Positions 17,375 to 44,478 of a stretch of DNA of 44,478 nucleotides are shown here, one piece after another. The first letter of the stretch is position 1; each line of letters begins with the position of its first letter. Source of the DNA: Bradyrhizobiaceae bacterium. Lineage in GTDB: Bacteria; Pseudomonadota; Alphaproteobacteria; Rhizobiales; Hyphomicrobiaceae. Under the pieces are notes generated by a model. It did no database searches. It was not told where the DNA came from and saw only the letters and a program-made list of their open reading frames with translations. A program made the translations under genes and the position numbers. Where the stretch lies: assembly GCA_947475855.1 (NCBI GenBank), contig CANJPN010000001.1:1-44478 (forward strand), given 5' to 3'.

Positions 17375-17711
17375 AGGATAGTCCTTCGATCCTAGATCAA
17401 CTCGTTTCCTCGCAGCCAGCTAACAGGCCCGCGCGCCGCGGGCAAGCAGCTTGGACGAGGCTCGACCATGCGTTCGGTGCCCAGCGAGAATGCCACATTT
17501 ACACACGCCCAAACCGCCTTTTCCGGGCTGAAGATGCAGTACCCCCGATAAACCGATAGCCCCCAGGGCGTGACGAACCGAAATTCGGAGACTTGCAACC
17601 GGAAAGTCGACACCGGAAATGCAGCGGGGGCGTCCGTATTGGGCCTCAAAAGCAGTCGAAACGGCCAAATGGGATTGAGCATTCGCAGCTTGAACAACAA
17701 CTCTACACGGT

Positions 17712-17763
17712 TCGATTCCGTAGCCACCAGGGTGCTACGCACCCTGGACCCACAGCTAAAACT
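17712..17763 (-). repeat. Copy A of a perfectly conserved 52-nt non-coding element (U-tract plus 9-bp hairpin), 39 nt downstream of TIR-STAND-FGS gene 1
   Basis: The sequence tcgattccgtagccaccagggtgctacgcaccctggacccacagctaaaact is identical to 21337-21388. It contains the perfect hairpin ccagggtgc-tac-gcaccctgg (17727-17747). The 39 nt between the element and the stop codon are only about 70% identical between the two copies (hand alignment). Confidence 0.85.
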
Positions 17764-17802
17764 CGCGTGCAAGCGCGCAGCGTCTTCGAGAACGTAAGGG
17801 TG

Positions 17803-20631
17803 CTAGGGGGTATGAATTAACGTCCTCGCAACCCGGAAGCCCAAGTTGAGGCCACGGAGGCCCGGAGCGTAGTAGTAGCGCTGCGCCGCGCGGAGAACCT
17901 GCGGAAGATTGAGCCAGGAGCCGCCGCGAAGAAGACGGGAACAGTCTTCATTGTCAGGCGCCGAGCTACCGTCCGTCGGCGCACTATTATAGGTATCGAC
18001 GTAACAGTCCTGGACCCACTCCCATACGTTACCGTGCATGTCATAGAGGCCGAAGCCGTTGGACTTCTTCTTCCCCGCCGGCTGCGTCTTGCTCTCGGAG
18101 TTCGAGTTGAACCATGCGTAATCGCCGAGCAGCGCTTCGTCGTCGCCGAACGACCAACGGCCCTGGTTGCCCGCTCGTGCGGCGTATTCCCATTCGGCCT
18201 CGGTGAGCAACCGATAGGAATGGCCGGTCATTTTTGACAGCCACGCGACATATTCCCGGGCGTCGTTCCAGTTGACGTTAATCACCGGCCGCCGTCCCCG
18301 CGGCCAACCGGAATCGGACGCGACAGTTTTGCAACCTCCTGCCGCTACGCAGGCATCCCACTGGTCGAAGGTAACCTCGTGAATAGAGACCGCCAATGGC
18401 GCCTTGATCGTCACCTTACGCAGCGGCCCCTCGTTGTCGCTGCGGTCCTTCTCGGCGTCGGGTGAGCCCATCGTGAAATCGCCCGCCGGCAGCACGACCA
18501 TGCCGGGGCAATGCCGCGAGTAGTCTGCGTCGGTCTTGGCGCAGTCCCAGAACGGATCGGCTTGCTTTTTGGCCAATGCGGCTTCCGCCGTCACCAGATA
18601 GGGCCGTGCCGTGACGTACTGGAACCACAGCCCGCTCAACTCGCGCTCGTACATCCGCGCGGTGAGGCCCGCGATGACGAGCGCCATCAGCAACACGATC
18701 GAAGCGCTCACGAGCCGCGCCCGGCGCCGGCCTGCAGCCTCCTGCTTCCGGCCGGCCGCCAGATACGCACTCGCCGGCGCCAAAGCGGCGGCGAAGTCGG
18801 GCTTGCCAATCAGATCGAGCGCGCTCTCCAGCCGCGTGCCGCGTCGCACGAAGTCGCCGTGCCGGCCACCGTCTGCCCACTCCTTGGCTTCGCGAAGCAC
18901 ATCGTCGCGCAGCTTCAGCGCGTCCTTCTGCTCCTCCAGCCAGCCATCGATCGGAGGACGTCGCAGCAGCGCCTCGTGCGCCACTTCAAGGGTGTCGCGG
19001 TTCTTTACAAGAAGGCGGTTCTCGACCAGCGCATTGGCCAGCGGCGCCAGCGCGGTCCGGCTGCCACCGACCAGCTCCACGTCTCGCGCCACCAGCCGCT
19101 TGGCGGCGTTTGCCGCCGGGTCCCATGTCGCGAGGCCCGGCACCATGAGCCGCCGCAGGCTGTCGTCGCCGCCGGCCGCACCCGCCGCCTTCTGCGCCTG
19201 TCGCAGCACGCGGGTGACGCAGCCGCCCATGCCGCCGATGTCGTTGTACTGCGCCAGCGTCAGCTCGTGCCCGGCTGCGTGCAGCTTGAACAACTGCGAC
19301 ATCGTAAAGGCCAGCAACGGCAGCGCGTCGGCGCCTGTCGCATCGGCGACGAGTTGGTTGGCCAGCGCCGGCTCGATGGTGAGGCGGCGCACCTGCTTGG
19401 TGTAGACCTCCGCCGGTTTCATGATGACGTCGCGATAGGCGCCGGGCGACAGCGGCGGCAGGTACAGCGGCTCGGGAGCATCGAGCCCGAGTGCGGCCAC
19501 CCGCTGCAACAAAGCCTCCACACTGTCGGCCCGGATCGTGATGAGCACGTAAGGATCGACGCCTTCGGGCGGCGCCTTCAGCAGCGCGGCCAGCACGTTG
19601 AGGAAGCGGTCGCTCTCCTGCGCGTCCTCTGCCGCGAACAGCTCCTCGCCCTGATCGATGGCGATCAGCGGCGCAGGTGGGCGGGCATCAGGCGAGGTCG
19701 CGCGCTGCGTGGCCGTGCAGACGGCCGCCGCCTCCGCCAGGAGCGCGCCGAACGCCATCGCGCTGGCGGCTTCGGTGGCGGCTCCGACCGCTGTGTTGAT
19801 CGAACCCGCCGTCTTGGTCTTACCGAAGCGCGCGAACCACGGCGCGAGCTGGAATCCGAGGCCGTCGGGCCCGGTCAGGATGCCCTGCGCGGGACGCAAA
19901 ATGGCGAGCGGCGCGAAATCGCGGTCGCGTTGCAGGCGCGGCCACAGACCCGCACGCAGGAACGACGACTTGCCGGCACCGGATGCCGCCTGGATCACGA
20001 ACAGGCGAGGTGCGCCGCGACGGCGCACGAGGCGGAGCTTGGTGAGCCCACTCATAATATCGGCCTCACGGCCGAAGAAGATGCCGGCGTCCTCCTCGCC
20101 CAGCGCGGACAGGCCGGGATATGGCTCGGCGTTGGGCTTGTCTTTCGGCGGCCACACGAAGCTGCCCGGCGCGACGCCGAGGTCTTCGAGTCGCGTCTTG
20201 ATCGAGTTGAGCGCGGCCAAGTTGAACTCGACCCGGTGCAGCTTGCCGTCGTGCTCGAACGGCTCCATGCGCTCGGTGGGCTCCGCCGACAGATCGACGA
20301 ACTGTCGCTCGGCGTAGCGAGCGAGACGGGGGTCATCCTTGGTGAGATCGCGCAGGATGGCCGGGATGATAGCCTTGCCGAGCGCCTCGGCCAGCTCCAG
20401 CTCCTTCTGGCATTCGACCGAGGCTATAGAGTCTGGCGAGGCGAGCAGGATGACGGCCTCGCAGGTCGCGTTGGCCTTGCGCAGCGTGTCGCGCCAGCGC
20501 TCGCCGGCACCGATACCGTGCAGGTCGATGAACACGTCGTCCTTGGACCAGCCGTTGGCTTCGAGCCAGCGCTGGAAGGCGAGGGCCTGGACGCTGTCCT
20601 TGCTCGAATGCGAGATGAACAAACGCGGCAA
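17803..20631 (-). CDS. TIR domain / P-loop STAND-type NTPase / single TM helix / FGE-sulfatase-like (SUMF1 fold, non-catalytic) protein, paralogue 1 (942 aa)
   Basis: The TIR domain shows LFISHSSKDS (beta-A) and ASPDSIASVECQKEL (the conserved Glu motif, E77). The NTPase shows Walker A VIQAASGAGKSS (K221, nt 19963-19983), Walker B LIAIDQGEELF, LPLLAF and LEVAHEALLRR helices typical of nSTAND-like NTPases. A TM segment LVSASIVLLMALVIAGLTA (nt 18658-18714) follows RRRAR. The FGE-sulfatase fold (nt 17824-18510) shows RPVINVNW, YRLLTEAEWEYAARAG, GLYDMHGNVWEWVQD, LRGGSW and NLGFRVAR. The gene uses a TTG start with GGGGG upstream. Confidence 0.9.
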   Translation of the reverse strand: MPRLFISHSSKDSVQALAFQRWLEANGWSKDDVFIDLHGIGAGERWRDTLRKANATCEAVILLASPDSIASVECQKELELAEALGKAIIPAILRDLTKDDPRLARYAERQFVDLSAEPTERMEPFEHDGKLHRVEFNLAALNSIKTRLEDLGVAPGSFVWPPKDKPNAEPYPGLSALGEEDAGIFFGREADIMSGLTKLRLVRRRGAPRLFVIQAASGAGKSSFLRAGLWPRLQRDRDFAPLAILRPAQGILTGPDGLGFQLAPWFARFGKTKTAGSINTAVGAATEAASAMAFGALLAEAAAVCTATQRATSPDARPPAPLIAIDQGEELFAAEDAQESDRFLNVLAALLKAPPEGVDPYVLITIRADSVEALLQRVAALGLDAPEPLYLPPLSPGAYRDVIMKPAEVYTKQVRRLTIEPALANQLVADATGADALPLLAFTMSQLFKLHAAGHELTLAQYNDIGGMGGCVTRVLRQAQKAAGAAGGDDSLRRLMVPGLATWDPAANAAKRLVARDVELVGGSRTALAPLANALVENRLLVKNRDTLEVAHEALLRRPPIDGWLEEQKDALKLRDDVLREAKEWADGGRHGDFVRRGTRLESALDLIGKPDFAAALAPASAYLAAGRKQEAAGRRRARLVSASIVLLMALVIAGLTARMYERELSGLWFQYVTARPYLVTAEAALAKKQADPFWDCAKTDADYSRHCPGMVVLPAGDFTMGSPDAEKDRSDNEGPLRKVTIKAPLAVSIHEVTFDQWDACVAAGGCKTVASDSGWPRGRRPVINVNWNDAREYVAWLSKMTGHSYRLLTEAEWEYAARAGNQGRWSFGDDEALLGDYAWFNSNSESKTQPAGKKKSNGFGLYDMHGNVWEWVQDCYVDTYNSAPTDGSSAPDNEDCSRLLRGGSWLNLPQVLRAAQRYYYAPGLRGLNLGFRVARTLIHTP

Positions 20632-20685
20632 AATACGCCCCCGATCCCCCGCCGCCAGAAACGCGGCGGTCGTGCCCGTGTGATC

Positions 20686-20714
20686 AGTCTAGCGTGACTG
20701 TTGCGCCGCTGGAA
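20686..20714 (-). promoter_or_regulatory. Candidate sigma-70-like promoter for paralogue 1 (TTCCAG-N17-TAGACT on the minus strand)
   Basis: The hexamers lie in a roughly 42-nt block that is conserved upstream of both paralogues, while neighbouring leader sequence has diverged. The match to consensus is weak at -35. Confidence 0.2.
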
Positions 20715-20745
20715 GCTCAGGAAGGCAACAGACAAGGCGACAAGC

Positions 20746-21063
20746 TCAGCCGCCGCCCTGGAAGCCACGGGCGCGAGACCGGAACAGGCGTGGGCTGCGG
20801 CGCTCGTGCAGCACGGCGAGCACGTACACGCGACTGTCCTGTGGGACGTAAAGCACGATGTAGGGGAAACGCCGCAATCGGACCCGACGGGTGCCCCGAT
20901 ACAGCGCACGCGGGCGCTCCGGACTTGCGCCGATCCTGGCGAACGCATGGCCCGCCTCCGCGATCATCTCATGGCCAAGCCCGAGTTGACGCGCCTCGTA
21001 CCAGCGGAATGCCTCAGCGAGGTCGGCTTCGGCCTCGGGCTGGACGATGACTTCGGCGGTCAC
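20746..21063 (-). CDS. ParE/RelE-family type II toxin
   Basis: The product (VTAEVIVQPEAEADLAEAFRWYE...RRVRLRRFPYIVLYVPQDSRVYVLAVLHERR) has the ParE/RelE C-terminal pattern. Its GTG start overlaps the antitoxin TGA stop (GTGA at 21060-21063). Confidence 0.8.
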   Translation of the reverse strand: MTAEVIVQPEAEADLAEAFRWYEARQLGLGHEMIAEAGHAFARIGASPERPRALYRGTRRVRLRRFPYIVLYVPQDSRVYVLAVLHERRSPRLFRSRARGFQGGG

Positions 21064-21275
21064 GGCTGGCCGGTGATACGACGGCGGACCTCGTCCCATG
21101 GCGCACCGACAGAGGTGCCGCTGTCGAGGGCGTCGAGCCGCTTGTCGATCTCGTCACGCTGCCAATCTTGGAGCGGCAGCGCGTCGGCATCAGTGTCGAG
21201 CGAATCCCACAGATCCTCGATCAGCTTCAGCCGCTCGGCGACGGGTAGCTTGGTGAGCGTGGTCGTGTCGGTCAT
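21060..21275 (-). CDS. Putative addiction-module antitoxin (TIGR02574-like)
   Basis: The product MTDTTTLTKLPVAERLKLIEDLWDSLDTDADALPLQDWQRDEIDKRLDAL...WDEV shows the characteristic ERL.L...LWDSL motif. It lies immediately upstream of the toxin and is coupled to it. Confidence 0.8.
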   Translation of the reverse strand: MTDTTTLTKLPVAERLKLIEDLWDSLDTDADALPLQDWQRDEIDKRLDALDSGTSVGAPWDEVRRRITGQP

Positions 21276-21336
21276 GACCAAACCATACCACAGATCCAGG
21301 ACTGGCGTCGATCTCGGCATCCGCACCGACCTCGAC

Positions 21337-21388
21337 TCGATTCCGTAGCCACCAGGGTGCTACGCACCCTGGACCCACAGCTAAAACT
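21337..21388 (-). repeat. Copy B of the 52-nt conserved element, 39 nt downstream of TIR-STAND-FGS gene 2
   Basis: This copy is identical to 17712-17763 and sits at the same distance (39 nt) from its stop codon. It lies between the paralogue 2 stop and the antitoxin start. Confidence 0.85.
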
Positions 21389-21427
21389 GGTGTGCGACCC
21401 GGCAAAGTTTGCCAGGACGTAACGGGG

Positions 21428-24337
21428 TTAGGGGGTATGAATTAACGTCCTCGCAACCCGGAAGCCCAAGCTGCTGTTGCGGTAGACCGGAGAGCCGTTG
21501 TTGCGCTGCGCCGCGCGGAGGTCCCGAGGATCGTTGACCCAGGAGCCGCCGCGAAGAACACGGGAACAGCCCTCCTTGTCGGGTACTGCACTACCGTCCG
21601 CGGGCGCATTTTTATAGCTGTTGATGTAGCAATCCTGCACCCACTCGAAGACGTTGCCATGCATATCGTGGAGCCCGAAAGCGTTCGCCGGGTAGCTGCC
21701 GACGGGCGCCGTTTGCGCCTGTTTGTCGTCGCAGTTGCCGATGTCACCGGTGTAACCGCGACGTCTGAATGACTGATCCGCGAGGTTGGCGTGCTTGCAA
21801 ATCTCGGTCGCATCGTTGCCGAACGAGTAGGCTGTCTGGGTGCCGGCCCGTGCGCCATACTCCCATTCGGCCTCGGTCAGCAGCCGGTACTCCTTGCCCG
21901 TCATTCTGGATAGCCAGACGACGTATGACTTCGCCTGATCCCATGACACGTTGATCACGGGCTTCCGGCCCTTGCCGAAGGTTGCGTCGCCGGTCGGCCG
22001 CCCGTCGCAGCCGCGCATCCCGACGCACGCCTCCCACTCGTCCCAGGTCACCTCGAACTTGGCCACCGCGAACGGTTTGGCGATGGTCACTGGGCGAACT
22101 GGGCCTTCGTCGTTGTCGCGTCCAGCCTCGTTGTCCGGCGAGCCCATGCGGAACGAGCCCGCCGGCAGCGCGACCATTTCAGGGCAGACCGTGGCGCACT
22201 CCCGGAACGTCTCGCCGGGCTTCTTCGTGTCGGCCTTGGCGGCCAGCACCTGCTCCCCGACCTTGGCGATGTAGGGTCGCTCCTCGCGGAACTGCCAGAT
22301 CGCGTGATCAATCTCTGCCTTGAAGATGGCGTACTGCGAGACGCCGATGACACCGAGCATAAGCGCGTAGATCGCCGCGCGAACACGGCCCGCCCGGCGC
22401 TGGCCCGCGGTCTCCAGGCGCTTGCAGGCAGCGAGATAGTCCTTCGCCGGCGCCATCGAAGCCGCGAAATCCGCGTTGCGGGCGAGCGCGAGGGCACTCT
22501 CCAGGTGGACGCCGCGGCGGGGCAGGTCATGGACCGGGCTGCCGCTGTCTTTCCAGTCCGTCACCTCACGTCGCACGTCGTCACGCAGTTTGAGAGCGTC
22601 CTGCTGAGCCTCCAGCCACTCCGAGATCGGCTTGCGTCGTAGCAACGCCTCGTGCGCGACCTCCAGTGTTGCCGGGCCTTTGCCGTCGTCGGCTGCACTC
22701 CTGGTCAACAGGCGGGCCTCGACGAGCGCATTGGCGAGTGGCGCAAGGCCAGAACGATCGCCTCCGACGATCTCCGCTTCCTGCGGCACCAGCCGCTTGG
22801 CGGCGTTGGCGGCCGTCTCCCAAGTCGCGAGTCCCGGCACCATCAGGCGGCGCAAGTGCTCCAGCGTTCCGGCCAGCCCGGCCTTTGCCTGTGCCTCTGC
22901 CAGCGCTCGGTCGATCGAGCCGCCGATCCCGCCCATGGCGTCGAATTGCGCGAGCGTCAGCTTGCGGTCGATGGCGTGGGCGTCGAACAGACGCTGGAGC
23001 GTGAACGCCAGCAACGGCAGCGCGTCGGCGCCCCTCGTCTCGTTTACCAGCGCCTGGACCAGCTCAGGCTCGACGTCGAGCCGCGCCACGCGCCGGGCGT
23101 GGACGGCCGCCGGGCGTGTGATGACGTCGCGATAGGCCGTCGGGGACAACGGCGGCAGCGGCAGAGAGAACGGCGTGTCGATGCCGAGTTCCGGCACGCG
23201 GCGGAGCAGAGCGTCGATGCTGTCGGCGCGGATAGTGATCAGGACATAAGGATCGAGCCCGGCCGGCGGCGCGGCGAGCAGCAGGCCCAGCATGGCGAGG
23301 AAGCGGTCGCTCTCGAATTTGTCTTCGGCGGCGAAAAGCTCCTCGCCCTGGTCGACGGCGATGAGCAGCGAGAGACGCCGCGCGCCGTTTGGTGCAGCGC
23401 CGAGGTTGCGCACTTCCAACGCCAGAGCCGCCGCTTCGGCGAGGAGGCCCGCGAGCTTCTTGGCCCCCGCCTCCACACCTTCCGCCATCAGCTCGGCCTG
23501 CATCGAGCCCGCCGACCGCGTCCGCCGGTGGCGAGCGAACCACGCTTCGAGCCCCTTGCCGAGGCCAAACTGGGGGCCGGTGATGATGCCCTTGGCCGGG
23601 CGGACGATGGCGAGCGGAACGAACTCGGACGTGCGACCGAGCTTTGGCCATAGACCGGCGCGGAGGAAGCTCGACTTGCCGGCGCCGGACGCCGCCTGGA
23701 TCACCATCATCCGGGGGCTGCCGCGCTCGCGCATGCGGCGCAACTCGCGCAGCCCGGTCATCACGTCGGCCTCCCGACCGAAGAAGATGGCAGCCGAATC
23801 CTCGCCCAGTGCCTCCAGGCCGGGATACGGCCGCGCATTGGGGCGGTCCTTCGGTGGCCAGGGGAAGCTGTCGGGCGCGTGCCCGCGGTCGATCAGCGTC
23901 GTGTGGATGGCATCGAGCCCTGGCCGGTGGAAGTCGATAAGGTGCAGGCGGCTCTGATGCTGTACCTCGATGCGTTCCGCCTTGGGCTCCGCGGAAAGGT
24001 CCACGATCTGGCGGTCGGCATAGGGCTTGAGCCGCTCGTCGGCGATGGTGATGCCGCGCAGCATGGCGACGATCACATCCTTGCCGTCGTCCTCGGCGCG
24101 GCGCACCTCCCGCCGGCATTCATCGGACGCGAGGCTGTCCGGTGACGCGAGGAACAGCAGCGCGTCGCAGGCGATGTTGGCCCTCACGAGGACCTTCTGC
24201 CATTCCTCGCCCGCGGCAATGCCGTGGAGATCGATGAACACCTCATCCTCACCCCAGCCGTTGGCCATCAGCCAGCGCTGGAACGCGAGGGCCTGGACGC
24301 TGTCCTTGCTGGAATGCGAGATGAACAAACGCGGCAA
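21428..24337 (-). CDS. TIR domain / P-loop STAND-type NTPase / single TM helix / FGE-sulfatase-like protein, paralogue 2 (about 969 aa from the homologous TTG)
   Basis: The architecture matches paralogue 1: LFISHSSKDS, ASPDSLASDECRREV, VIQAASGAGKSS (nt 23669-23689), LIAVDQGEELF, LPLLAF, LEVAHEALLRR, a TM segment AAIYALMLGVIGVSQYAIF (about nt 22322-22381) and an FGE-like domain (about nt 21443-22189) with KPVINVSW, YRLLTEAEWEYGARAG, GLHDMHGNVFEWVQD, LRGGSW and SLGFRVAR. The ORF track extends to the ATG at 24385. I prefer the TTG at 24337 because the sequence around it is conserved with paralogue 1. Confidence 0.9.
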   Translation of the reverse strand: MPRLFISHSSKDSVQALAFQRWLMANGWGEDEVFIDLHGIAAGEEWQKVLVRANIACDALLFLASPDSLASDECRREVRRAEDDGKDVIVAMLRGITIADERLKPYADRQIVDLSAEPKAERIEVQHQSRLHLIDFHRPGLDAIHTTLIDRGHAPDSFPWPPKDRPNARPYPGLEALGEDSAAIFFGREADVMTGLRELRRMRERGSPRMMVIQAASGAGKSSFLRAGLWPKLGRTSEFVPLAIVRPAKGIITGPQFGLGKGLEAWFARHRRTRSAGSMQAELMAEGVEAGAKKLAGLLAEAAALALEVRNLGAAPNGARRLSLLIAVDQGEELFAAEDKFESDRFLAMLGLLLAAPPAGLDPYVLITIRADSIDALLRRVPELGIDTPFSLPLPPLSPTAYRDVITRPAAVHARRVARLDVEPELVQALVNETRGADALPLLAFTLQRLFDAHAIDRKLTLAQFDAMGGIGGSIDRALAEAQAKAGLAGTLEHLRRLMVPGLATWETAANAAKRLVPQEAEIVGGDRSGLAPLANALVEARLLTRSAADDGKGPATLEVAHEALLRRKPISEWLEAQQDALKLRDDVRREVTDWKDSGSPVHDLPRRGVHLESALALARNADFAASMAPAKDYLAACKRLETAGQRRAGRVRAAIYALMLGVIGVSQYAIFKAEIDHAIWQFREERPYIAKVGEQVLAAKADTKKPGETFRECATVCPEMVALPAGSFRMGSPDNEAGRDNDEGPVRPVTIAKPFAVAKFEVTWDEWEACVGMRGCDGRPTGDATFGKGRKPVINVSWDQAKSYVVWLSRMTGKEYRLLTEAEWEYGARAGTQTAYSFGNDATEICKHANLADQSFRRRGYTGDIGNCDDKQAQTAPVGSYPANAFGLHDMHGNVFEWVQDCYINSYKNAPADGSAVPDKEGCSRVLRGGSWVNDPRDLRAAQRNNGSPVYRNSSLGFRVARTLIHTP

Positions 24338-24393
24338 AATACGCCCCCAATCCCGCGCCGCGTGAGGAATGCCGCGAACGCGCACCGCGAGGC

Positions 24394-24422
24394 AGTCTAG
24401 AGTGACTGTGGTGCGGATGGAA
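24394..24422 (-). promoter_or_regulatory. Candidate sigma-70-like promoter for paralogue 2 (TTCCAT-N17-TAGACT on the minus strand)
   Basis: This is the homologous position of the conserved upstream block seen at 20686-20714. Confidence 0.2.
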
Positions 24423-24541
24423 GCTCGGGAAGGCGGCTTAGGAGGGCAATAGCTCTGAAGGACTCACGGCCTAAGATTCGGACGTGGGGAAAAAAGGTTT
24501 GATCCCCCAATCCTGCCGCGCAGATGAACGCACCGGCGCTC

Positions 24542-26501: not shown

Positions 26502-29185
<2,684 letters not shown>

Positions 29186-29189
<4 letters not shown>

Positions 29190-29716
29190 ATCACTTGCCC
29201 GTTCGAGGAACTGAATGTCCATTGCTTCGTCCGCGCGGCATCGATCAGATCGCGGATGGTGACGGGAATTCTCCCTCCACGGCGCCCACTCGCACTTGAG
29301 AACAAACGGCTGAGCAGCGCGATCAGGATGGCGCACGTCGCATAGACCGCGGTGAAGAAACCGCTGCTCGCCAGCAGTGCCGAGCCTTCGAGGCCTGCCA
29401 GGCGCGCGGCAACTCCGATCGCGTGCATCGCAAGCACGCTCGTCGGCAGCGCCACGACCATCGCGACGGCTATCGGCCATCCCCGCGATGCGTCGTTTCC
29501 AAAGTGCCGATTGAAGTCCACATGGGTCATGTCGATTCCAAACTCTCGTTCCATCCGCAGCATCAGCTCTCGGGCTCGATCGCCAGTGCATCCCAGATCA
29601 TTCTCGATGTCGCTCTCGGGCCTGAGGGCGAGAATGTTCCAGCCTGTTTCATCGGCGACCACCTTCATCACCCGCTCGCTCAGATCATCTGCCGGCGTCG
29701 CAGTCACGACGATCAC
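29186..29716 (-). CDS. ACP-like (DUF1493-like) N-terminal domain + 2-3 TM helices, hypothetical
   Basis: The product ([19 protein letters not shown]...[30 protein letters not shown]) resembles the acyl-carrier-like DUF1493 pattern and is followed by hydrophobic helices. The GTG at 29716 overlaps the upstream TGA (GTGA). The ATG at 29668 is an alternative start. Confidence 0.55.
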
Positions 29717-30774
29717 CCATGCACGAACGGCTCGAGACCGGAGAGGCGCATCTTGACCGGCGGCTCGACCGGCTTGCGCGGCGGATGCTTCGACACGTGG
29801 GCTTTGATCTCGGCGATGTGCCCCGGCGTCGAGCCGCAGCACCCGCCGACGATGTTCAGCAACCCATCGCGCGCCCACGGCTCGATCTGGCAGCTCATGT
29901 CGTGAGGCGTCTCGTCGTATTCACCCATCGCATTGGGCAGGCCCGCGTTCGGATAGGCGAGCACATAGGTATCGGCGACCGCCGCGATCTCGGCGATGTA
30001 GGGCCGCATCGCCTCCGCGCCGAGCGCGCAGTTTAGCCCGATGGCGAACGGCTTCAAATGCCGCATCGAATACCAGAACGCTTCTGGCGTCTGCCCCGAC
30101 AGCGTGCGGCCAGACCGATCCGTAATGGTGCCGGAGATCATCAGCGGAAGCTCGACGCCCTTGTCGTCGAATGCTTCGAGCACTGCAACGCCGGCAGCCT
30201 TTGCATTCAGTGTATCGAATACCGTCTCGATCAGCAGAACGTCGGCGCCGCCTTCGATCAGCCCCTTGGCCTGCTCGAAATAGGCCGAACGCAATTCGTC
30301 GAACGAGACGTTGCGAAACCCGGGATTGTTGACGTCAGGAGAGATCGACGCGGTGCGGTTCGTCGGTCCCAGCGCACCGGCGACGAAGCGCGGCTGATCC
30401 GGCGTCATTTCTGTCCAGGCGTCTGCCGCAGCACGCGCGATCCTGGCCGCTTCCAGATTGATCTCGTAGGCCAATTCCTCCATGCCGTAGTCGGCCATGG
30501 AGATCACCTGCGCATTGAACGTGTTCGTCTCCACCATATCGGAGCCGGCCGCGAAATAGCTGTCGTGGATCTCGCGGATCAACTGCGGCTGTGACAGCAC
30601 CAGAAGATCGTTGTTGCCCTTCACGTCGCGATGCCAGTCCTTGAACCGCTCGCCGCGATACTCGGCCTCGCTCATCTTGCGGGTCTGGATCTCGGTGCCC
30701 ATGCCGCCGTCGATGATCACGATGCGCCGGGTAACCGCCTCCTTGAGCGCGGCGATACGTTGTTCTCTGGTCAT
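29713..30774 (-). CDS. Homocysteine S-methyltransferase domain protein (N-terminal module of MetH as a separate polypeptide)
   Basis: The 353-aa product contains [13 protein letters not shown], and the GLNCALG and [11 protein letters not shown] zinc-ligand Cys motifs. It ends in RLSGLEPF, which is the Hcy/pterin linker in E. coli MetH. Confidence 0.9.
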
Positions 30775-37758: not shown

Positions 37759-38796
37759 TTACACCTCGGCAGCCTTCGCATGAATATCGATCAATTCCGG
37801 GATGGTCTCCACCCGGCGGCGGCCGAAACCGCATTCGGTGCCGATCCCGAAGTCGCGGCGGTAGCGCTGTGCCGTCGCCATGCGGCGGCGCGTGCCGTCC
37901 AGGCCGTCCGTGTGATGCACGAGGCCGAGGACCAGCAGCGTCTTGGCGCTCAACGCCAGCCGTCGCAGCGGCTCGAAATAGGCGTCGTCGGAACGATCGC
38001 GCGGCACGGGCATGTGGATCAACTGGATCGGACGCGGCACGCGGCGGGTCAACTCGTTGGCGAGATCGACCATGTCTCCCATGTCGGTGGGTTCGACGAC
38101 GTGCTTGTGATTGGCGTCGCCGTAGCAGAAGTGGAACAGCAGATCGATGCCCGCGGGAACGTGCCCCGCGAGGTCGATCAGGATGTCGGCAAAGCGCGCC
38201 TGCATGTCGGACTTGGTCGCGCCGTAGCTCGATGCCTGTCCGCGTTGCAGGCGGGCGAACACGGCCGAGGCCACATCGAGCTGGATCGCGACATCGGACG
38301 CTGGGATCGCCGCTGCGATCTTGTCGATCTCGCGCTTCACGGCCGCATTATAGATCGGGTCCAGCGCCGCCTGCAGGTCGTCCTCGACATAGAGCCACAG
38401 CACGGAATGCGCCGGCACCAGATCGACCTGCAGTTTGACATGGGCCGGCACGGCGCCGTCGCGCTTCGCCTCTCTCAGCGCGGCATAAGATTGGATCGCC
38501 TTGTCGGCGTAGAAGAGGTTGGCGAAGGTGACGTCCGAGGGCTTCTTGCCGGGACGCAGCGTGTAGCGGACGTGCGGATCGGCGCCGTCGTGGACTCGGA
38601 ACAGCTTGCCGGACGGCATCAGCGCGGGATCGTCGCGGAAGATCGGTTCGAGCCAGGTGATCCAATCCAGGCGCTCGCCGGTTTCGCCGTCGGGCAGCCA
38701 TCGCAGGTGCGAGCCGAGCTTGCCGCCGATGGTGCGGAACACTTCCCCGGCGTCGGCCATGGGCACGCTTCCGACGAGATAGACGGGACGGGACAT
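37759..38796 (-). CDS. MetE-C-terminal-like (UROD/MetE superfamily) putative Zn-dependent enzyme
   Basis: This is the distal 345 aa of track ORF 37759..39912. The ATG at 38796 has GAGGAA upstream. LLFHFCYGD and GIGTECGFGRR resemble the His/Cys...Cys zinc ligand motifs of cobalamin-independent methionine synthase. The upstream about 370 codons of the track ORF are antisense to the dehydrogenase gene. Confidence 0.7.
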   Translation of the reverse strand: MSRPVYLVGSVPMADAGEVFRTIGGKLGSHLRWLPDGETGERLDWITWLEPIFRDDPALMPSGKLFRVHDGADPHVRYTLRPGKKPSDVTFANLFYADKAIQSYAALREAKRDGAVPAHVKLQVDLVPAHSVLWLYVEDDLQAALDPIYNAAVKREIDKIAAAIPASDVAIQLDVASAVFARLQRGQASSYGATKSDMQARFADILIDLAGHVPAGIDLLFHFCYGDANHKHVVEPTDMGDMVDLANELTRRVPRPIQLIHMPVPRDRSDDAYFEPLRRLALSAKTLLVLGLVHHTDGLDGTRRRMATAQRYRRDFGIGTECGFGRRRVETIPELIDIHAKAAEV

Positions 38797-38946
38797 GGGC
38801 GTTTCCTCGGTTCTCGCGCTGCGATCTGAGGCTCGCTGGTTAGTGCATTGCGGGCACGATTGCCAACCCGCCGGGGGCGAGGGTGCTTTACAGGTGACGG
38901 CGCGATGGTGTTGAGAGGCTCGAACGACGCCATCGCCGGAGCCGAG

Positions 38947-39915
38947 ATGACAGCCCCCCCGCCCCCCGTCCGCACCCAGGTGCTCGTGCTCGAGCGGTTC
39001 GCCGACGAATATGCGCGGCATCTGCGCGAGGCGTTCCCCGTGCTCGACGTCCACACCGCGGGCACGCTGGCCGAGATCGTGGTGCCGCTCGACCGGGTGG
39101 ACGTGCTGGTGGCCTTCGGGGTGGCGATCGACGACGGCCTGATGATGGGCGCGCGCCGGCTCAAGTGGATCCAGTCGTTGGCGACCGGCGTCGATCACTT
39201 CCTGAAGTCGCCCGGTCTGCGCAAGGAGACGCTGCTGACCAGCGCGCGGGGCATCCACGGCGCGCCGATGCGCGAAACGGTTGCGATGTTGCTGCTGGGC
39301 GTCACGCGCAATGTCCGGCGTCTCGTCGACAATCAGCACGCCAAGGTGTGGGAGCGCGGTAATCCCTGGCCGCTGCTCGCGGGCAAGACCGCGCTTGTCG
39401 TCGGTTCCGGCGTGAGCGGCAGCGCGATCGGCTCGCTGCTGCAGGCGTTCGGCATGACGACGATCGTGGCGACGCGCAGTCCGAGAGCCGTGGAGGGTTT
39501 CGACCGGTCGATCGCGGTGGCCGACCTCGCGACCGAAGTCGCCAAGGTCGATGTGCTCGTCGACGTGCTGCCCGGGGGGACGGAGTATCAGAATACGATC
39601 AGCCGCGCGGTGCTCGAGGCGATGAAGCCGTCGGCGGTGTTCATCAACGTCGGGCGAGGCGAGACTGTGGACGAGACGGCGCTGATCGACGTGCTGGCCA
39701 AGGGACGCATCGCGGGCGCCGGCCTCGACGTCGTCGCCCGCACGCCGCTCGATGCTGCGAGCCCGCTGTGGGAGATGCCGAACGTGCTGCTGTCGCCGCA
39801 CATCGGCGGATATTTCGCCGAGTACGAGCAGCACATGATGCCGATCCTGATCGAGAATATGCGGTTGTTTCTCGCCGGACGCGGCGCAGAGATGCGGAAC
39901 CTGATCGGGCATTGA
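38947..39915 (+). CDS. D-isomer-specific 2-hydroxyacid dehydrogenase family, NAD-binding
   Basis: The product has LAGKTALVVGSGVSGSAIG (Rossmann), FINVGRGETVDE, and GAGLDVV...PLW..PNVLLSPHIGG (the catalytic His context). Confidence 0.85.
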   Translation: MTAPPPPVRTQVLVLERFADEYARHLREAFPVLDVHTAGTLAEIVVPLDRVDVLVAFGVAIDDGLMMGARRLKWIQSLATGVDHFLKSPGLRKETLLTSARGIHGAPMRETVAMLLLGVTRNVRRLVDNQHAKVWERGNPWPLLAGKTALVVGSGVSGSAIGSLLQAFGMTTIVATRSPRAVEGFDRSIAVADLATEVAKVDVLVDVLPGGTEYQNTISRAVLEAMKPSAVFINVGRGETVDETALIDVLAKGRIAGAGLDVVARTPLDAASPLWEMPNVLLSPHIGGYFAEYEQHMMPILIENMRLFLAGRGAEMRNLIGH

Positions 39916-42144: not shown

Positions 42145-42225
42145 GGTGCGGTAGCGCTTCAGCGCGTACCGCACCGGATATCGCTCGTTCAGGCAATGGT
42201 GCGGTACGCTTCGCTGCACCCTACG
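42141..42225. repeat. REP-like element, GTAGGGTGCGGTA family, copy 2 (contains the ubiD-family stop codon)
   Basis: The element is gtagggtgcggta-gcgcttcagcgcg-taccgcacc ... ggtgcggta..gcaccctac. The TAG at 42142-42144 is the stop of the preceding CDS. Confidence 0.7.
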
Positions 42226-42288
42226 GCCGAGTCGAAAATTCGCGGCCGCAATGATAAGAACCACGCTGAGAAACCGGGAGGAACACGA

Positions 42289-43329
42289 ATGTCCGTAATC
42301 AGGTCGCTGCTCGCAGCAACTGTCGCCACGATCGCTACCGTCGGGTACGCGCAGGCGCAGAAGCCGCTGGACAAAGTAAAGGTCGCACTCGCGAAATCGG
42401 TCTCGAACGGGGCCATGCTGATCGCGGTCGAGCGCGGCTATTTCAAGGAAGCCGGCATCGATGTCGAGATGCAGGACATCGACACGGCCGCGGACGCACT
42501 GTCACTCGTCGCCCAGGGCCAGCTTCAGATCGTGGGTGCCGGCGTCTCTGCCGGATACTTCAATGCGGTCGACCGCGGCCTGCCGGTCACCATCACGATT
42601 TCGCGCGTGGCTTTCCCGGCGGGCCACAACCTGATGATCCGTCCCGATCTCAAGGACGAGATCAAGTCGATGAAGGACATGAAGGGGCGCAACATCGCCT
42701 CGAACGGGCCAGGCTCGATCTCCACCTATGAAATAGGCAAGATGCTGGAGCCGCATGGCCTCACGCTCAACGACGTCAACATCAAGATCTTCCCGTTCCC
42801 GCAGTACGCGGTTGCGTTCGCCAACAAGGCTGTCGACGCGGGGCTCGTCATTCCGCCGTGGACGCTGTCCTACGAGAAGCAGGGCATCGCACTGCCGTTC
42901 GGCGACGCCGACAAGCTCGTGCCTGGCCCCGTGACGATATCCGTCAACTTCGCCAACACGGATTGGCTCGCCAAGAACACCGATGTCGCAAACCGCTTCT
43001 ACCTTGCCTATCTCAAGGGCGGCCGGGATTGGTGCCAGGGCTATCACGGCGCCCCGGTTCGCAACGAGATCATCGATCTGCTGATCAAATCGAAGGTAGA
43101 GACGCGACGCGAGGTGCTCGACGGCTTCTGGACCGCCCGGCCAGTCGACGGGCGCGTCGACGAGAAGAGCATTCTCGACGTGCAGAAGTTCTACCTCGAG
43201 CAGAAGATGATCAAGAAAACCTTCCCGATCGAGAAACTCGTCGACTACAGCTTCGTCGACTGGGCAACCAAGCAACTGCCGAAATTCGAGCTGGCGAACA
43301 AGGACAGCAAGCTGGACGGCTGCAAGTAG
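42289..43329 (+). CDS. NMT1/SsuA-like ABC transporter substrate-binding protein
   Basis: GGGAGG lies upstream of the ATG at 42289. The product has a signal peptide (MSVIRSLLAATVATIATVGYAQAQ) and then KVKVALAKSVSNGAMLIAVERGYFKEAGIDVE. Confidence 0.85.
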   Translation: MSVIRSLLAATVATIATVGYAQAQKPLDKVKVALAKSVSNGAMLIAVERGYFKEAGIDVEMQDIDTAADALSLVAQGQLQIVGAGVSAGYFNAVDRGLPVTITISRVAFPAGHNLMIRPDLKDEIKSMKDMKGRNIASNGPGSISTYEIGKMLEPHGLTLNDVNIKIFPFPQYAVAFANKAVDAGLVIPPWTLSYEKQGIALPFGDADKLVPGPVTISVNFANTDWLAKNTDVANRFYLAYLKGGRDWCQGYHGAPVRNEIIDLLIKSKVETRREVLDGFWTARPVDGRVDEKSILDVQKFYLEQKMIKKTFPIEKLVDYSFVDWATKQLPKFELANKDSKLDGCK

Positions 43330-43338
43330 CGCGCGAGG

Positions 43339-43436
43339 GGTGTCAGCCCCTCCGGGTCTGACACCGGGTATCGGCCGTCGATATTCCATGTCATCAGCAC
43401 GCACCTTCCGGTGTCAGACCCGGAGGGTCTGACACC
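43339..43436. repeat. Two GGTGTCAG..CTGACACC palindromic hairpins (second REP family) in the intergenic spacer
   Basis: The first hairpin is 43339-43365, ggtgtcag-cccctccgggt-ctgacacc. The second is 43410-43436, ggtgtcagaccc-gga-gggtctgacacc, with perfect 12-bp arms. Confidence 0.65.
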
Positions 43437-43449
43437 ATCGGGAACGCCC

Positions 43450-44478
43450 ATGAAACGCACCTTTCTCGCACTTGCCTCGCTCGCCGTGTTTGCTCTTCCT
43501 GCCAGCGCACAGCAGCACACCGTCAAGGTCGGCGTGGTCCGCTCGGTGATCACGCTGGCGAACCAGATCTCGATCACGAAGGGCTATTTCAAGGAATACG
43601 GGATCGAAGCGACGGTCGACGATCTCGACACGTCGGCGGACGCCATGGCGCTGCTCGCCGCCGGGCAGTTCAACATCATCGAGGGCGGGCTGGCGGCGGG
43701 GTATTTCAATGCGCTCGCCAAGAAGTTCCCGATCATCATCGCGTCGGATCGCGTGTCCGCGCCCAACAACCACAAGTTCGTCGTGCGAGCGGACTTGAAG
43801 GACCAGATCAAGTCGCCCGCCGACCTCAAAGGCAAGGTCGTCGCGTCGAACGGCGGGCCTGGCGCGATCACGACCTACGAGATCGGCAAGATCGTCGCGT
43901 CGGGCGGGCTGTCGCTGAAGGACATCGATCTCAAGGTGATCCCGTTCCCGCAGATGGTGATCGCGCTGACCAATAAGTCGGTCGATGCGGCGATCGTGAT
44001 CTCGCCGTTCTACGCGCCGATATTCGAACGCGGTGTCGGTTTCGAGCTGATCGATCCGGAAGCCGTGATCGAGAAGGGGCCGTTCTCCAGCGCACAGGTT
44101 TTCATCAACACCGACTGGGCGGCGAAGAACCCGCAACTGGTGCGGGATTACTACGCCGCGTACATGCGCGGCGTGCGTGAATACTGCCAGGCCTATCATG
44201 GGGGACCGAACCGGGCCGAGGTCGTGGAACTCGCGCAGAAGACGGGGATCGAGAAGCGCCAGGAGGTGCTCGAGAAGCTGCCTTGGCCGTCGCGCAGTCC
44301 CTATGGCCGGGCCAGCGTCGCCAACATCCTCGACGTACAAGACTGGTTCCACGCGCAAGGCTCGATCCAGCAGAAGTTCCCCGTGGAGAAGCTGGTCGAC
44401 ACCGCATATGCGGACCACGCGAACGCGAAGCTGGGGAAGTACGAGGTGATCAATTCGGCGAGCACGTTGAAGGGGTGC
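43450..44478 (+). CDS. NMT1/SsuA-like ABC transporter substrate-binding protein, paralogue (3' end runs off the window)
   Basis: I translated this by hand and it is not in the ORF track. MKRTFLALASLAVFALPASAQQHTVKVGVVRSVITLANQISITKGYFKEYGIEATV... is collinear with the 42289 gene. The frame is open to 44478. The antisense ORF 43414..44418 was rejected. Confidence 0.8.
   Translation, partial: MKRTFLALASLAVFALPASAQQHTVKVGVVRSVITLANQISITKGYFKEYGIEATVDDLDTSADAMALLAAGQFNIIEGGLAAGYFNALAKKFPIIIASDRVSAPNNHKFVVRADLKDQIKSPADLKGKVVASNGGPGAITTYEIGKIVASGGLSLKDIDLKVIPFPQMVIALTNKSVDAAIVISPFYAPIFERGVGFELIDPEAVIEKGPFSSAQVFINTDWAAKNPQLVRDYYAAYMRGVREYCQAYHGGPNRAEVVELAQKTGIEKRQEVLEKLPWPSRSPYGRASVANILDVQDWFHAQGSIQQKFPVEKLVDTAYADHANAKLGKYEVINSASTLKGC

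Follow-up and report, generated by a model that had tools for sequence, protein, structure and literature searches.

Bacterial proteins in which an N-terminal effector, an nSTAND1 NTPase and a C-terminal sensor of the formylglycine-generating enzyme (FGE)-sulfatase (FGS) or C-type-lectin (CLec) fold are joined in one polypeptide were predicted by Kaur, Iyer, Burroughs & Aravind (2021, eLife; PMC8195603, Fig. 2I), who defined the STAND–FGS conflict system and named nSTAND1. In their account, TIR is among the N-terminal effectors, and the genes, with multiple paralogues per genome, are frequently linked to diversity-generating retroelements (DGRs) that lie adjacent or elsewhere in the genome. 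Here we describe two paralogous genes of this kind, P1 and P2, in a 44,478-nucleotide stretch of contig CANJPN010000001.1 (assembly GCA_947475855.1; the 44-kb window) from an uncultured Hyphomicrobiaceae-like alphaproteobacterium, whose MetH has 76–78% identity to its named relatives. They resemble the STAND–FGS proteins in their single-chain arrangement, their paralogy and their link to DGRs: very probably, both have the anatomy TIR–nSTAND1–transmembrane (TM) helix–FGE/CLec and end in variable regions (VRs) of DGR origin. Whereas Kaur et al. treat the FGS domain as an intracellular sensor of invaders, the clade of P1 and P2 has a conserved TM helix between the STAND and FGS parts, a feature of which we found no mention in the sections of PMC8195603 consulted. 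Such a membrane-split topology could qualify as a variant of the STAND–FGS kind. Both their description and ours are purely computational.

A second close parallel is the work of Doré et al. (2024, PNAS; PMC10907252), in which DGRs diversify nSTAND1/NACHT–CLec proteins, often with two targets per locus; some of these STAND–CLec targets are TIR-headed, some are remote from the retroelement, and for one no diversity was seen in nature. The targets of their DGR clade 5D (Thiohalocapsa PB-PSB1 and relatives) are, like P1 and P2, paired STAND–CLec proteins, some with TIR heads. However, the hosts are Gammaproteobacteria and cyanobacteria described as multicellular, and, unlike the clade 5D loci, P1 and P2 have no DGR cassette within the window. 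This kind of protein is already predicted in the computational literature, and a preliminary description of the stretch, made from its letters alone, understated the matter in supposing that such fusions had merely been noted in surveys: Kaur et al. define the system and Doré et al. describe TIR-headed DGR targets. The immune-like reading offered there is plausible and, in view of these two papers, less novel than claimed. That no system of this architecture has been characterized experimentally agrees with what we found. The literature searched held no experimental study of TIR–nSTAND1–TM–FGE proteins, and a 2026 Nature survey (PMC13581612) lists FGE-like STAND sensors, with experiments that concern other sensors. 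The preliminary description missed the most informative feature of the locus, namely that both genes terminate in variable regions made by a DGR.

Other comparisons are more distant. Avs and bNACHT proteins, antiviral STAND NTPases whose NLR-like function has been validated by experiment, share with P1 and P2 the logic of effector, STAND switch and sensor in a single protein, with effector swapping that includes TIR. They recognize phage proteins in the cytoplasm through TPR-like repeats, however, and have no TM helix, lectin fold or DGR; no Avs or NACHT model of PADLOC matches P1 or P2. TvpA of Treponema denticola and Mtd of Bordetella phage BPP-1 carry, like P1 and P2, a C-terminal VR on an FGE/CLec fold, with codons rewritten at the adenines of an AAC-rich template. 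These are surface or tail binders without a signaling module, whereas the domain in P1 and P2 would be the sensor of a TIR–STAND machine. Animal Toll-like receptors, in which one TM helix joins an extracytoplasmic ligand domain to a TIR domain in the cytoplasm, are a conceptual analogue only, as the homology is limited to the TIR domain, their TIR domains are adaptors, and they have neither STAND module nor retroelement diversification.

Architecture of P1 and P2

P1 (window positions 17803–20631, minus strand; 942 aa) and P2 (21428–24337, minus strand; 969 aa) both begin with TTG, are 56% identical over their whole length (549/977) and form intact, gene-like open reading frames (ORFs), with G+C at third codon positions (GC3) of 0.83–0.84. 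The P2 ORF can be extended to a GTG at 24385 (985 aa). The TTG at 24337 is the better start, since GGGGGCGTATTTTG is common to both genes at the TTG and public gene calls put P2 at 969 aa.

In both proteins the order is TIR (5–117), nSTAND1 (170 to ~595), TM helix and FGE domain (708–936 in P1, 718–963 in P2). Profile searches place all three families far above the Pfam gathering cut-offs: P1 and P2 score 63.1 and 48.5 bits against TIR_2 (cut-off 28), 208.3 and 200.2 bits against nSTAND1 (PF20703; cut-off 27.1; P1 E=3.7e-61), with profile positions 1–377 of 379 covered, and 196.9 and 191.8 bits against FGE-sulfatase (cut-off 23.3). P1 was also modeled with AlphaFold2 on an alignment of 89 homologues; the model reaches a mean pLDDT of 86.3 and has the same domain order as Pfam. 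Foldseek searches with the whole model returned FGE-domain matches only and nothing informative for the STAND part. The preliminary description had proposed two same-strand paralogues of 942 and about 969 aa sharing one architecture, a single TM helix (there is a hydropathy peak in both proteins) and the logic of an effector, a STAND switch and a variable sensor, and on all of these points the domain content and the P1 model agree with it, as do its motifs and residue numbers, each of which lies where it was placed.

The TIR domain of P1 (20281–20619, minus strand; aa 5–117) begins with FISHSS (5–10) and contains S71, E73, C74 and the candidate catalytic glutamate E77, which is invariant across the 89 homologues. 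By sequence its closest solved relative is SpbK of Bacillus subtilis ICEBs1, a weak match (E=0.007) in which the FISHSSKD start and the glutamate align. E77 aligns with E216 of the SpbK chain in 9PHB, a residue that we take to be native E192, the validated catalytic glutamate, on the assumption of a 24-residue tag. The fold match and the conserved glutamate point to a TIR domain of the NADase type, with NAD+ cleavage as its candidate activity. In SpbK, NAD+ depletion is the direct effector mechanism and leads to abortive infection; unlike P1 and P2, SpbK lacks STAND, TM and lectin parts, and its activator is a phage portal protein in the cytoplasm. The TIR region also gives weak matches to the PADLOC models for ThsB, Aga-TIR, SAVED-TIR and SpbK (E 5e-6 to 2e-3). 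We considered and rejected Thoeris, as the ThsB/ThcB4 matches are far below cut-offs and the islet that holds P1 and P2 has no SIR2-, SLOG- or macro-type gene.

The nSTAND1 module of P1 (18859–20124, minus strand; aa 170–591) has an intact Walker A motif (ASGAGKSS, 216–223, with GAGKSS at 218–223 and the lysine at K221) and an intact Walker B motif (LIAIDQGEE, 322–330, with D326 and E329–E330; DQGEELF at 326–332), followed by LPLLAF at 437 and LEVAHEALLRR at 548–558. G218, G220, K221, S222, S223, D326, Q327 and E330 are invariant across the 89 homologues. In a sister clade (P0012–P0036, P0047, P0048, P0052, P0068 and L003:10001–12418) a class III adenylate/guanylate cyclase (PF00211, Guanylate_cyc) replaces the N-terminal TIR, and these proteins retain ~64–72% identity over the nSTAND1–TM–FGE part (85% of the query). 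By their domain content, they are a case of clean effector swapping on a constant receptor.

Variable regions of DGR origin

The DNA of P1 and P2 changes character at the 3′ ends. Identity at third codon positions rises from 0.53 gene-wide to 0.83–0.87 in the last ~50 codons, where amino acid identity is only 0.60: first and second positions vary and third positions are constant. Within the last 40 codons, at the C terminus of the CLec/FGE fold, lie VR1 of P1 (17825–17944, minus strand; 120 nt) and VR2 of P2 (21450–21569, minus strand), both homologous to the template repeat (TR) of a DGR on another contig, L089. The variability of the sensor and the unusual 3′ DNA conservation of the paralogues are both explained if the 3′ ends are DGR variable regions.

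Two other contigs carry the comparison. On L086, from a Hyphomicrobiaceae metagenome-assembled genome, genes for bAvd and a reverse transcriptase (RT) come after a 59%-identical homologue, and a 140-nt repeat of the target's own 3′ end lies 400 nt downstream. All mismatches between the repeats are at adenines of the downstream copy. This homologue is a bona fide cis DGR target with a textbook VR/TR pair. The other contig, L089, was the single match when JGI metagenomes were scanned with a pattern consisting of the positions at which P1 and P2 agree, with N where they differ. On one strand it carries an FGE-domain target, a downstream hairpin element, an AAC-rich TR, bAvd and an RT with 77% identity to the one on L086, and the target ends in ...GLGFRVARTLIHTP, as P1 and P2 do.

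Over the 120-nt homology, which includes 28 TR adenines, VR2 differs from the L089 TR at 13 positions, all 13 of which are TR adenines (P=4e-10). For VR1, 18 of 22 differences fall on TR adenines (P=6e-11), and for the VR of L089 itself, 11 of 12 (P=1.9e-7). This bias is not circular, since it also holds in the 49 nt upstream of the search pattern, which were unconstrained (6/6 differences at adenines for P2 and 7/10 for P1), and at the 14 free positions of the pattern, 13 of which are A in the L089 match (P=1.6e-7). In its FGE domain the L089 target has no more than 42% identity to P2, yet its VR scaffold and its 12 C-terminal residues match exactly, as expected if one template serves divergent targets. 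Among the 89 homologues, the hypervariable columns (3.3–3.8 bits) coincide with the AAC codons of the TR, and the invariant VR scaffold comprises R902, G903, G904, W906, R914, R918, R926 and G931-F932-R933; in P1 the hypervariable tip consists of about 16 residues within aa 907–929. Plain gene conversion between P1 and P2 was rejected as the sole cause of the 3′-end conservation, as the positions that differ are adenines in a template that was found independently. Taken as sequence evidence, these comparisons show that VR1 and VR2 are of DGR origin. Equal-sized contigs suggest that RTs of this DGR clade share contigs with four further TIR–nSTAND1–FGE homologues.

The 3′ boundary of the variable regions fits this origin in its layout. 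Homology between TR and VR stops at GGGTTGCGAG; beyond it, the three VRs share GACGTTAATTCATACCCCCTA (GACG...), whereas the TR diverges after GCGAG. This break, GGGTTGCGAG|GACGTTAATTCATACCCCCTA (17804–17834, minus strand, in P1), is the same in all three targets (P1, P2 and that of L089) and has the appearance of a boundary between initiation of mutagenic homing (IMH) and IMH* sites. A 52-nt element begins 41 nt past each stop codon (17712–17763 for P1 and 21337–21388 for P2, both minus strand). The two copies are 100% identical, and the element also lies 3′ of the L089 target, where the spacer between stop codon and element has diverged. Within it, 56 nt past the stop codon, is a GC-rich, perfect 9-bp hairpin, CCAGGGTGC-GTA-GCACCCTGG (17727–17747 for P1; 21352–21372 for P2). 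GC-GNA-GC hairpins are also found 55–80 nt past the stop codons on L085 and L086, and a longer hairpin follows the L003 gene. In the BPP-1 system, DGR homing requires a hairpin/cruciform near the VR. By analogy, we interpret the 52-nt element as a putative DGR hairpin/cruciform element; its folding energy is unexceptional (z = −1.4).

ARAGORN and Rfam (gathering thresholds) identified no tRNA or catalogued RNA at the 3′ element. Read on the plus strand (17707–17735 and 21337–21360), the element holds an 18-nt stretch, TCGATTCCGTAGCCACCA, that resembles the T-arm and acceptor 3′ end of a tRNA with CCA; the likeness may be fortuitous or the trace of a former att site. An att-site reading was not supported, as the window ORFs scanned include no tRNA, integrase or transposase. 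At the opposite ends of P1 and P2, the first ~30 codons and ribosome-binding region (20493–20655 and 24199–24361) are 85% identical at the nucleotide level, with third-position identity of 0.83, making a second homogenized or constrained tract. A promoter and terminator scan of the islet yielded nothing above background.

A binding domain predicted to lie outside the cytoplasm

Each protein has one hydrophobic helix, between the STAND module and the FGE domain. In P1 it spans aa ~638–660 (18652–18720, minus strand), follows the polybasic RRRAR and has a Kyte-Doolittle value of 2.47; in P2 it spans aa ~652–672 (22316–22384, minus strand), follows RRAGRVR and has a value of 1.77. In the P1 model a continuous helix, 618–660, includes the TM segment. 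The polybasic-then-hydrophobic segment is kept in essentially all of the 120 closest homologues, as the flagging of 20 of them as lacking the TM pattern is due to the motif regular expressions and an N-terminal extension and is not demonstrated helix loss. The cyclase-headed sisters have it too, as does a relative with only 31% identity (L004). The orientation is predicted to be N-in/C-out, with the sensor outside the cytoplasm, because of the positive-inside rule, because no signal peptide precedes the TIR domain, and because the TIR and NTPase domains depend on NAD+ and ATP, which are cytoplasmic. The part beyond the helix is cysteine-rich (6 Cys in 282 aa); C697 and C708 are invariant and C761 and C767 nearly invariant among the 89 homologues.

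The sensor of P1 (17824–18510, minus strand; aa 708–936) has the FGE-sulfatase/C-type-lectin fold and is non-catalytic. The nearest solved structure is PvdO of Pseudomonas aeruginosa (5HHA; phmmer 1e-53, 42–43% identity, Foldseek TMt 0.82), followed by the DGR variable protein TvpA (2Y3C; phmmer 7e-30, Foldseek TMt 0.70), with true FGEs behind both, at about 1e-21. The catalytic cysteines of FGEs are C336/C341 in the human enzyme and form the motif LCHxSYCxRYR in bacteria. In P1 the pair is absent, as LCHDSYCNRY of the bacterial FGE 6MUJ aligns to LNLP--QVLR, and the segment so aligned is the hypervariable VR. The best family match is NCBIfam PvdO (NF051459; E=1e-60 and 3e-73), with 205.2 and 246.2 bits for P1 and P2, well below the 500-bit equivalog cut-off. 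PvdO is periplasmic and, like the P1/P2 sensor, lacks the FGE cysteines. In contrast to P1 and P2, it is a stand-alone accessory of pyoverdine maturation, and there are no pyoverdine genes near P1 and P2. From its sequence, the sensor is a binding domain and not an FGE enzyme.

Proposed mechanism and alternatives

How might these parts work together? In the reading we favor, and think probable, a DGR-written periplasmic binding domain is linked, by a single helix across the membrane, with a STAND switch and a TIR NADase. P1 and P2 would be single-pass inner-membrane receptors resembling nucleotide-binding leucine-rich repeat (NLR) proteins, with cytoplasmic TIR and nSTAND1 domains and a lectin-fold sensor beyond the membrane, whose ligand-binding tip was written by mutagenic retrohoming from an AAC-rich TR in which any adenine may become any base. 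Since P1 and P2 keep the same IMH-like boundary and downstream hairpin, a single Avd/RT/TR cassette elsewhere could rewrite both genes in trans and produce two receptors of different specificities.

In such a receptor, a periplasmic ligand would bind or cluster the lectin-fold domains; candidates are toxins delivered into the cell and molecules of invaders, for instance the tail or ejection proteins of phages. The signal would be relayed via the continuous juxtamembrane/TM helix, the STAND module would oligomerize in an NTP-dependent manner, and the TIR domains would assemble and cleave NAD+, resulting in depletion and abortive infection or in a nucleotide signal. The ligand, the oligomerization, the NADase output and the defence role are proposed by analogy; an immune or abortive output has about an even chance. 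The same logic is predicted in PMC10907252 and PMC8195603, and a role in conflict is supported by the absence of the islet from near-identical genomes and by the abundance of mobile elements around homologues (below).

Several findings weigh against the favored reading. No RT, Avd or TR was identified within the window, either by tblastn (queries: RT and Avd of L086) or by a repeat search, and the L089 TR that matches VR1 and VR2 comes from a different metagenome. In consensus assemblies, which are blind to minority variants, we detected no variation of VR1, which is identical in L001, L002, L094 and L096 (and in part in L090), or of VR2, which is identical in two further contigs. VR1 also has four non-adenine differences from the L089 TR, and these ordinary substitutions weigh against recent homing, because fresh homing would erase them. 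Diversification of the VRs may be past and not ongoing. As to function, PADLOC-DB 2.0 reports no system, and no match for the NTPase or sensor, for P1 and P2, and the expectation of a defence islet was not borne out, as the only recognized defence genes among the scanned window ORFs are a toxin-antitoxin (TA) pair. We also found no characterized precedent for a single TM helix that relays binding to a STAND module, and the cyclase-headed sister group, ~70% identical over STAND–TM–FGE, fits a second-messenger receptor equally well.

The main rival explanation as to status is that P1 and P2 are frozen relics, former DGR targets that lost their retroelement and are now receptors of fixed specificity or are decaying. 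The missing cassette, the identity of the VRs across independent assemblies and the four non-adenine changes in VR1 all speak for it. A repeat search found no third VR-like copy in the window, and a homology search for the RT gave as its best match a sequence of 93% identity from an unrelated sample, with no TR on that contig. Most close homologues with 10-kb flanks have no local TR; among seven loci checked (L001 duplicates the window), only L086 has one. Some related contigs carry truncated copies: a 202-aa P2-like remnant with only a weak TIR match (L087:10001–10609; P0122/P0123) adjoins, in the one context read, an IS66-family transposase operon, and such remnants are evidence of decay or turnover of P2-like genes. 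Nevertheless, we regard the relic explanation as less likely than not, since both ORFs are intact with gene-like GC3, VR2 matches the heterologous L089 TR at every non-adenine site, and the IMH-like boundary and 52-nt element are perfectly kept in both copies while the spacer from stop codon to element has diverged. Moreover, related DGRs are known to act on remote targets in trans, among them one in which no diversity was detected (PMC10907252), and minority variants would escape the consensus assemblies on which the apparent lack of variation is based.

As to function, the main rival is a non-immune TM signaling receptor, which would bind a ligand of the envelope or environment and produce a nucleotide second messenger, with the DGR tuning its specificity ("regulatory pathway tuning"). 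Cyanobacterial DGR targets have been argued to tune signal transduction (Vallota-Eastman et al., 2020; PMC7517822), and further support comes from a sister clade in which Guanylate_cyc stands in for TIR on a receptor ~70% identical elsewhere, from window neighbors with housekeeping or signaling functions, such as PilZ and PAS proteins, and from the lack of a PADLOC system. Against it stand the presence/absence polymorphism of the islet in near-identical backgrounds, the location of homologues close to mobile elements, to a TIR–WD40 gene and to a restriction-modification (R-M) system of type I, and the invariance of the NADase-type catalytic glutamate. There is no adjacent cognate signal receptor gene, and conflict systems typically keep the sensor constant while exchanging the effector, here TIR, cyclase or trypsin (PMC8195603). 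On balance we think this alternative quite improbable.

An enzymatic role of the FGE/PvdO/EgtB family, in sulfatase maturation or in pyoverdine or thiohistidine chemistry, is suggested by the public name "SUMF1/EgtB/PvdO family nonheme iron enzyme" and by PvdO being the best family match for the sensor, but is so improbable that we reject it, as the PvdO scores fall far short of the cut-off, a hypervariable VR stands where the catalytic Cys pair would be, the same chain carries TIR and STAND domains, the tip of the sensor is written by a DGR, and no sulfatase, pyoverdine or ergothioneine genes are among the nearby window ORFs scanned. For annotation, this implies that the names "SUMF1/EgtB/PvdO family nonheme iron enzyme" and "formylglycine-generating enzyme" are wrong for thousands of proteins that now bear them.

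If the favored reading is extended further, P1 and P2 would be retroelement-programmable, periplasm-facing antigen receptors, Toll-like or B-cell-receptor-like, wired to a STAND–TIR death or signaling module. We put this forward tentatively, as possible but short of probable. Such receptors would survey the periplasm for phage tail or ejection proteins, delivered toxins and predators with a binding site rewritable in trans, and this alphaproteobacterial clade would be the first NLR-like family to sense outside the cytoplasm. Were the topology and an immune output confirmed, bacterial NLR-like sensing would extend to the periplasm and targeted hypermutation would be linked to a TIR effector. 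It has been proposed that STAND–lectin proteins diversified by DGRs are what bacteria have in place of hypermutating antigen receptors, and this locus would be a compact test case, with two single-gene receptors that have different VRs, a matching template sequence and a natural empty-site control.

The islet and its surroundings

P1 and P2 lie in a variable islet of 7.1 kb (17429–24541), delimited by BLAST against two contigs with an empty site, L095 and L091. There, a 386-nt unrelated spacer, the same in both, replaces the islet between cysE and the DUF3126 gene. L095 and L091 encode an identical DUF3126 protein, and their flanks are 99.2–99.4% identical to the window; empty-site L095 and islet-bearing L002 come from one sample (the same metagenome). 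Because the empty-site allele occurs in near-identical flanks, the islet is a presence/absence polymorphism and P1 and P2 are accessory, rather than uniformly core, genes.

By eye, the spacer appears to hold a small hydrophobic ORF (L095:290–675). Identity is only 95% on the cysE side of the empty site but 99.2% on the opposite side, a contrast suggestive of a recombination boundary. The assemblies of L090, L092, L093 and L097 break at or just upstream of DUF3126, the islet edge, and these breaks fit paralogous repeats or strain heterogeneity.

Between P1 and P2 is the TA pair noted in the preliminary description, a ParE-family toxin (20746–21063, minus strand; 105 aa in the public call; ParE_toxin PF05016, 41.6 bits) and an antitoxin called "putative addiction module component" (21060–21320, minus strand; 86 aa; Unstab_antitox PF09720, 70.3 bits, and TIGR02574, 68.3 bits). 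The two genes overlap by 4 nt and have the features of a type II TA system. Since the pair is absent from every homologue context examined, it is most likely a local stabilizing hitchhiker.

Reading outward, one flank of the islet encodes DUF3126, γ-CA-like, BTLCP, PilZ, PAS, rhomboid, CBS, patatin, hisI and recG, and the other cysE, a split metH, MTHFR and TctC. The other scanned window ORFs with a Pfam match all look like housekeeping genes, and a few ORFs have no match.

The neighborhoods of homologues are not conserved and include transposases, a resolvase/SNIPE region, Prim-Pol and an IS66-truncated copy. The closest homologue of named source (P0002, 70% identical) is divergently adjoined by a gene for a 1016-aa NLR-like protein of TIR and WD40 β-propeller (L088:6176–9226). 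On a 35-kb contig (P0127; JGI 3300059473), an RT 92% identical to that of L089 is part of a cassette that directly adjoins a type I R-M system and comprises three targets of Trypsin_2–FGE-sulfatase type, OmpA and a caspase (Peptidase_C14–DUF4384). In the window, no known defence gene flanks the islet, and the TA pair is the only defence-like neighbor. As a whole, the homologue contexts are accessory and of the conflict type, not core.

Three further features of the window lie outside the islet. The methionine synthase appears split into two ORFs (26502–29591 and 29713–30774), with a homocysteine S-methyltransferase ORF upstream of a pterin/B12/activation-domain ORF that has 906 aa in public calls. 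A 717-aa ORF at 37759–39912 (minus strand) has the codon bias of a gene (GC content of first and third codon positions 0.78 and 0.77) but no Pfam match at E≤1e-4. Finally, 42196–43329 and 43411–44478 are tandem paralogous genes for NMT1/THI5-like periplasmic substrate-binding proteins.

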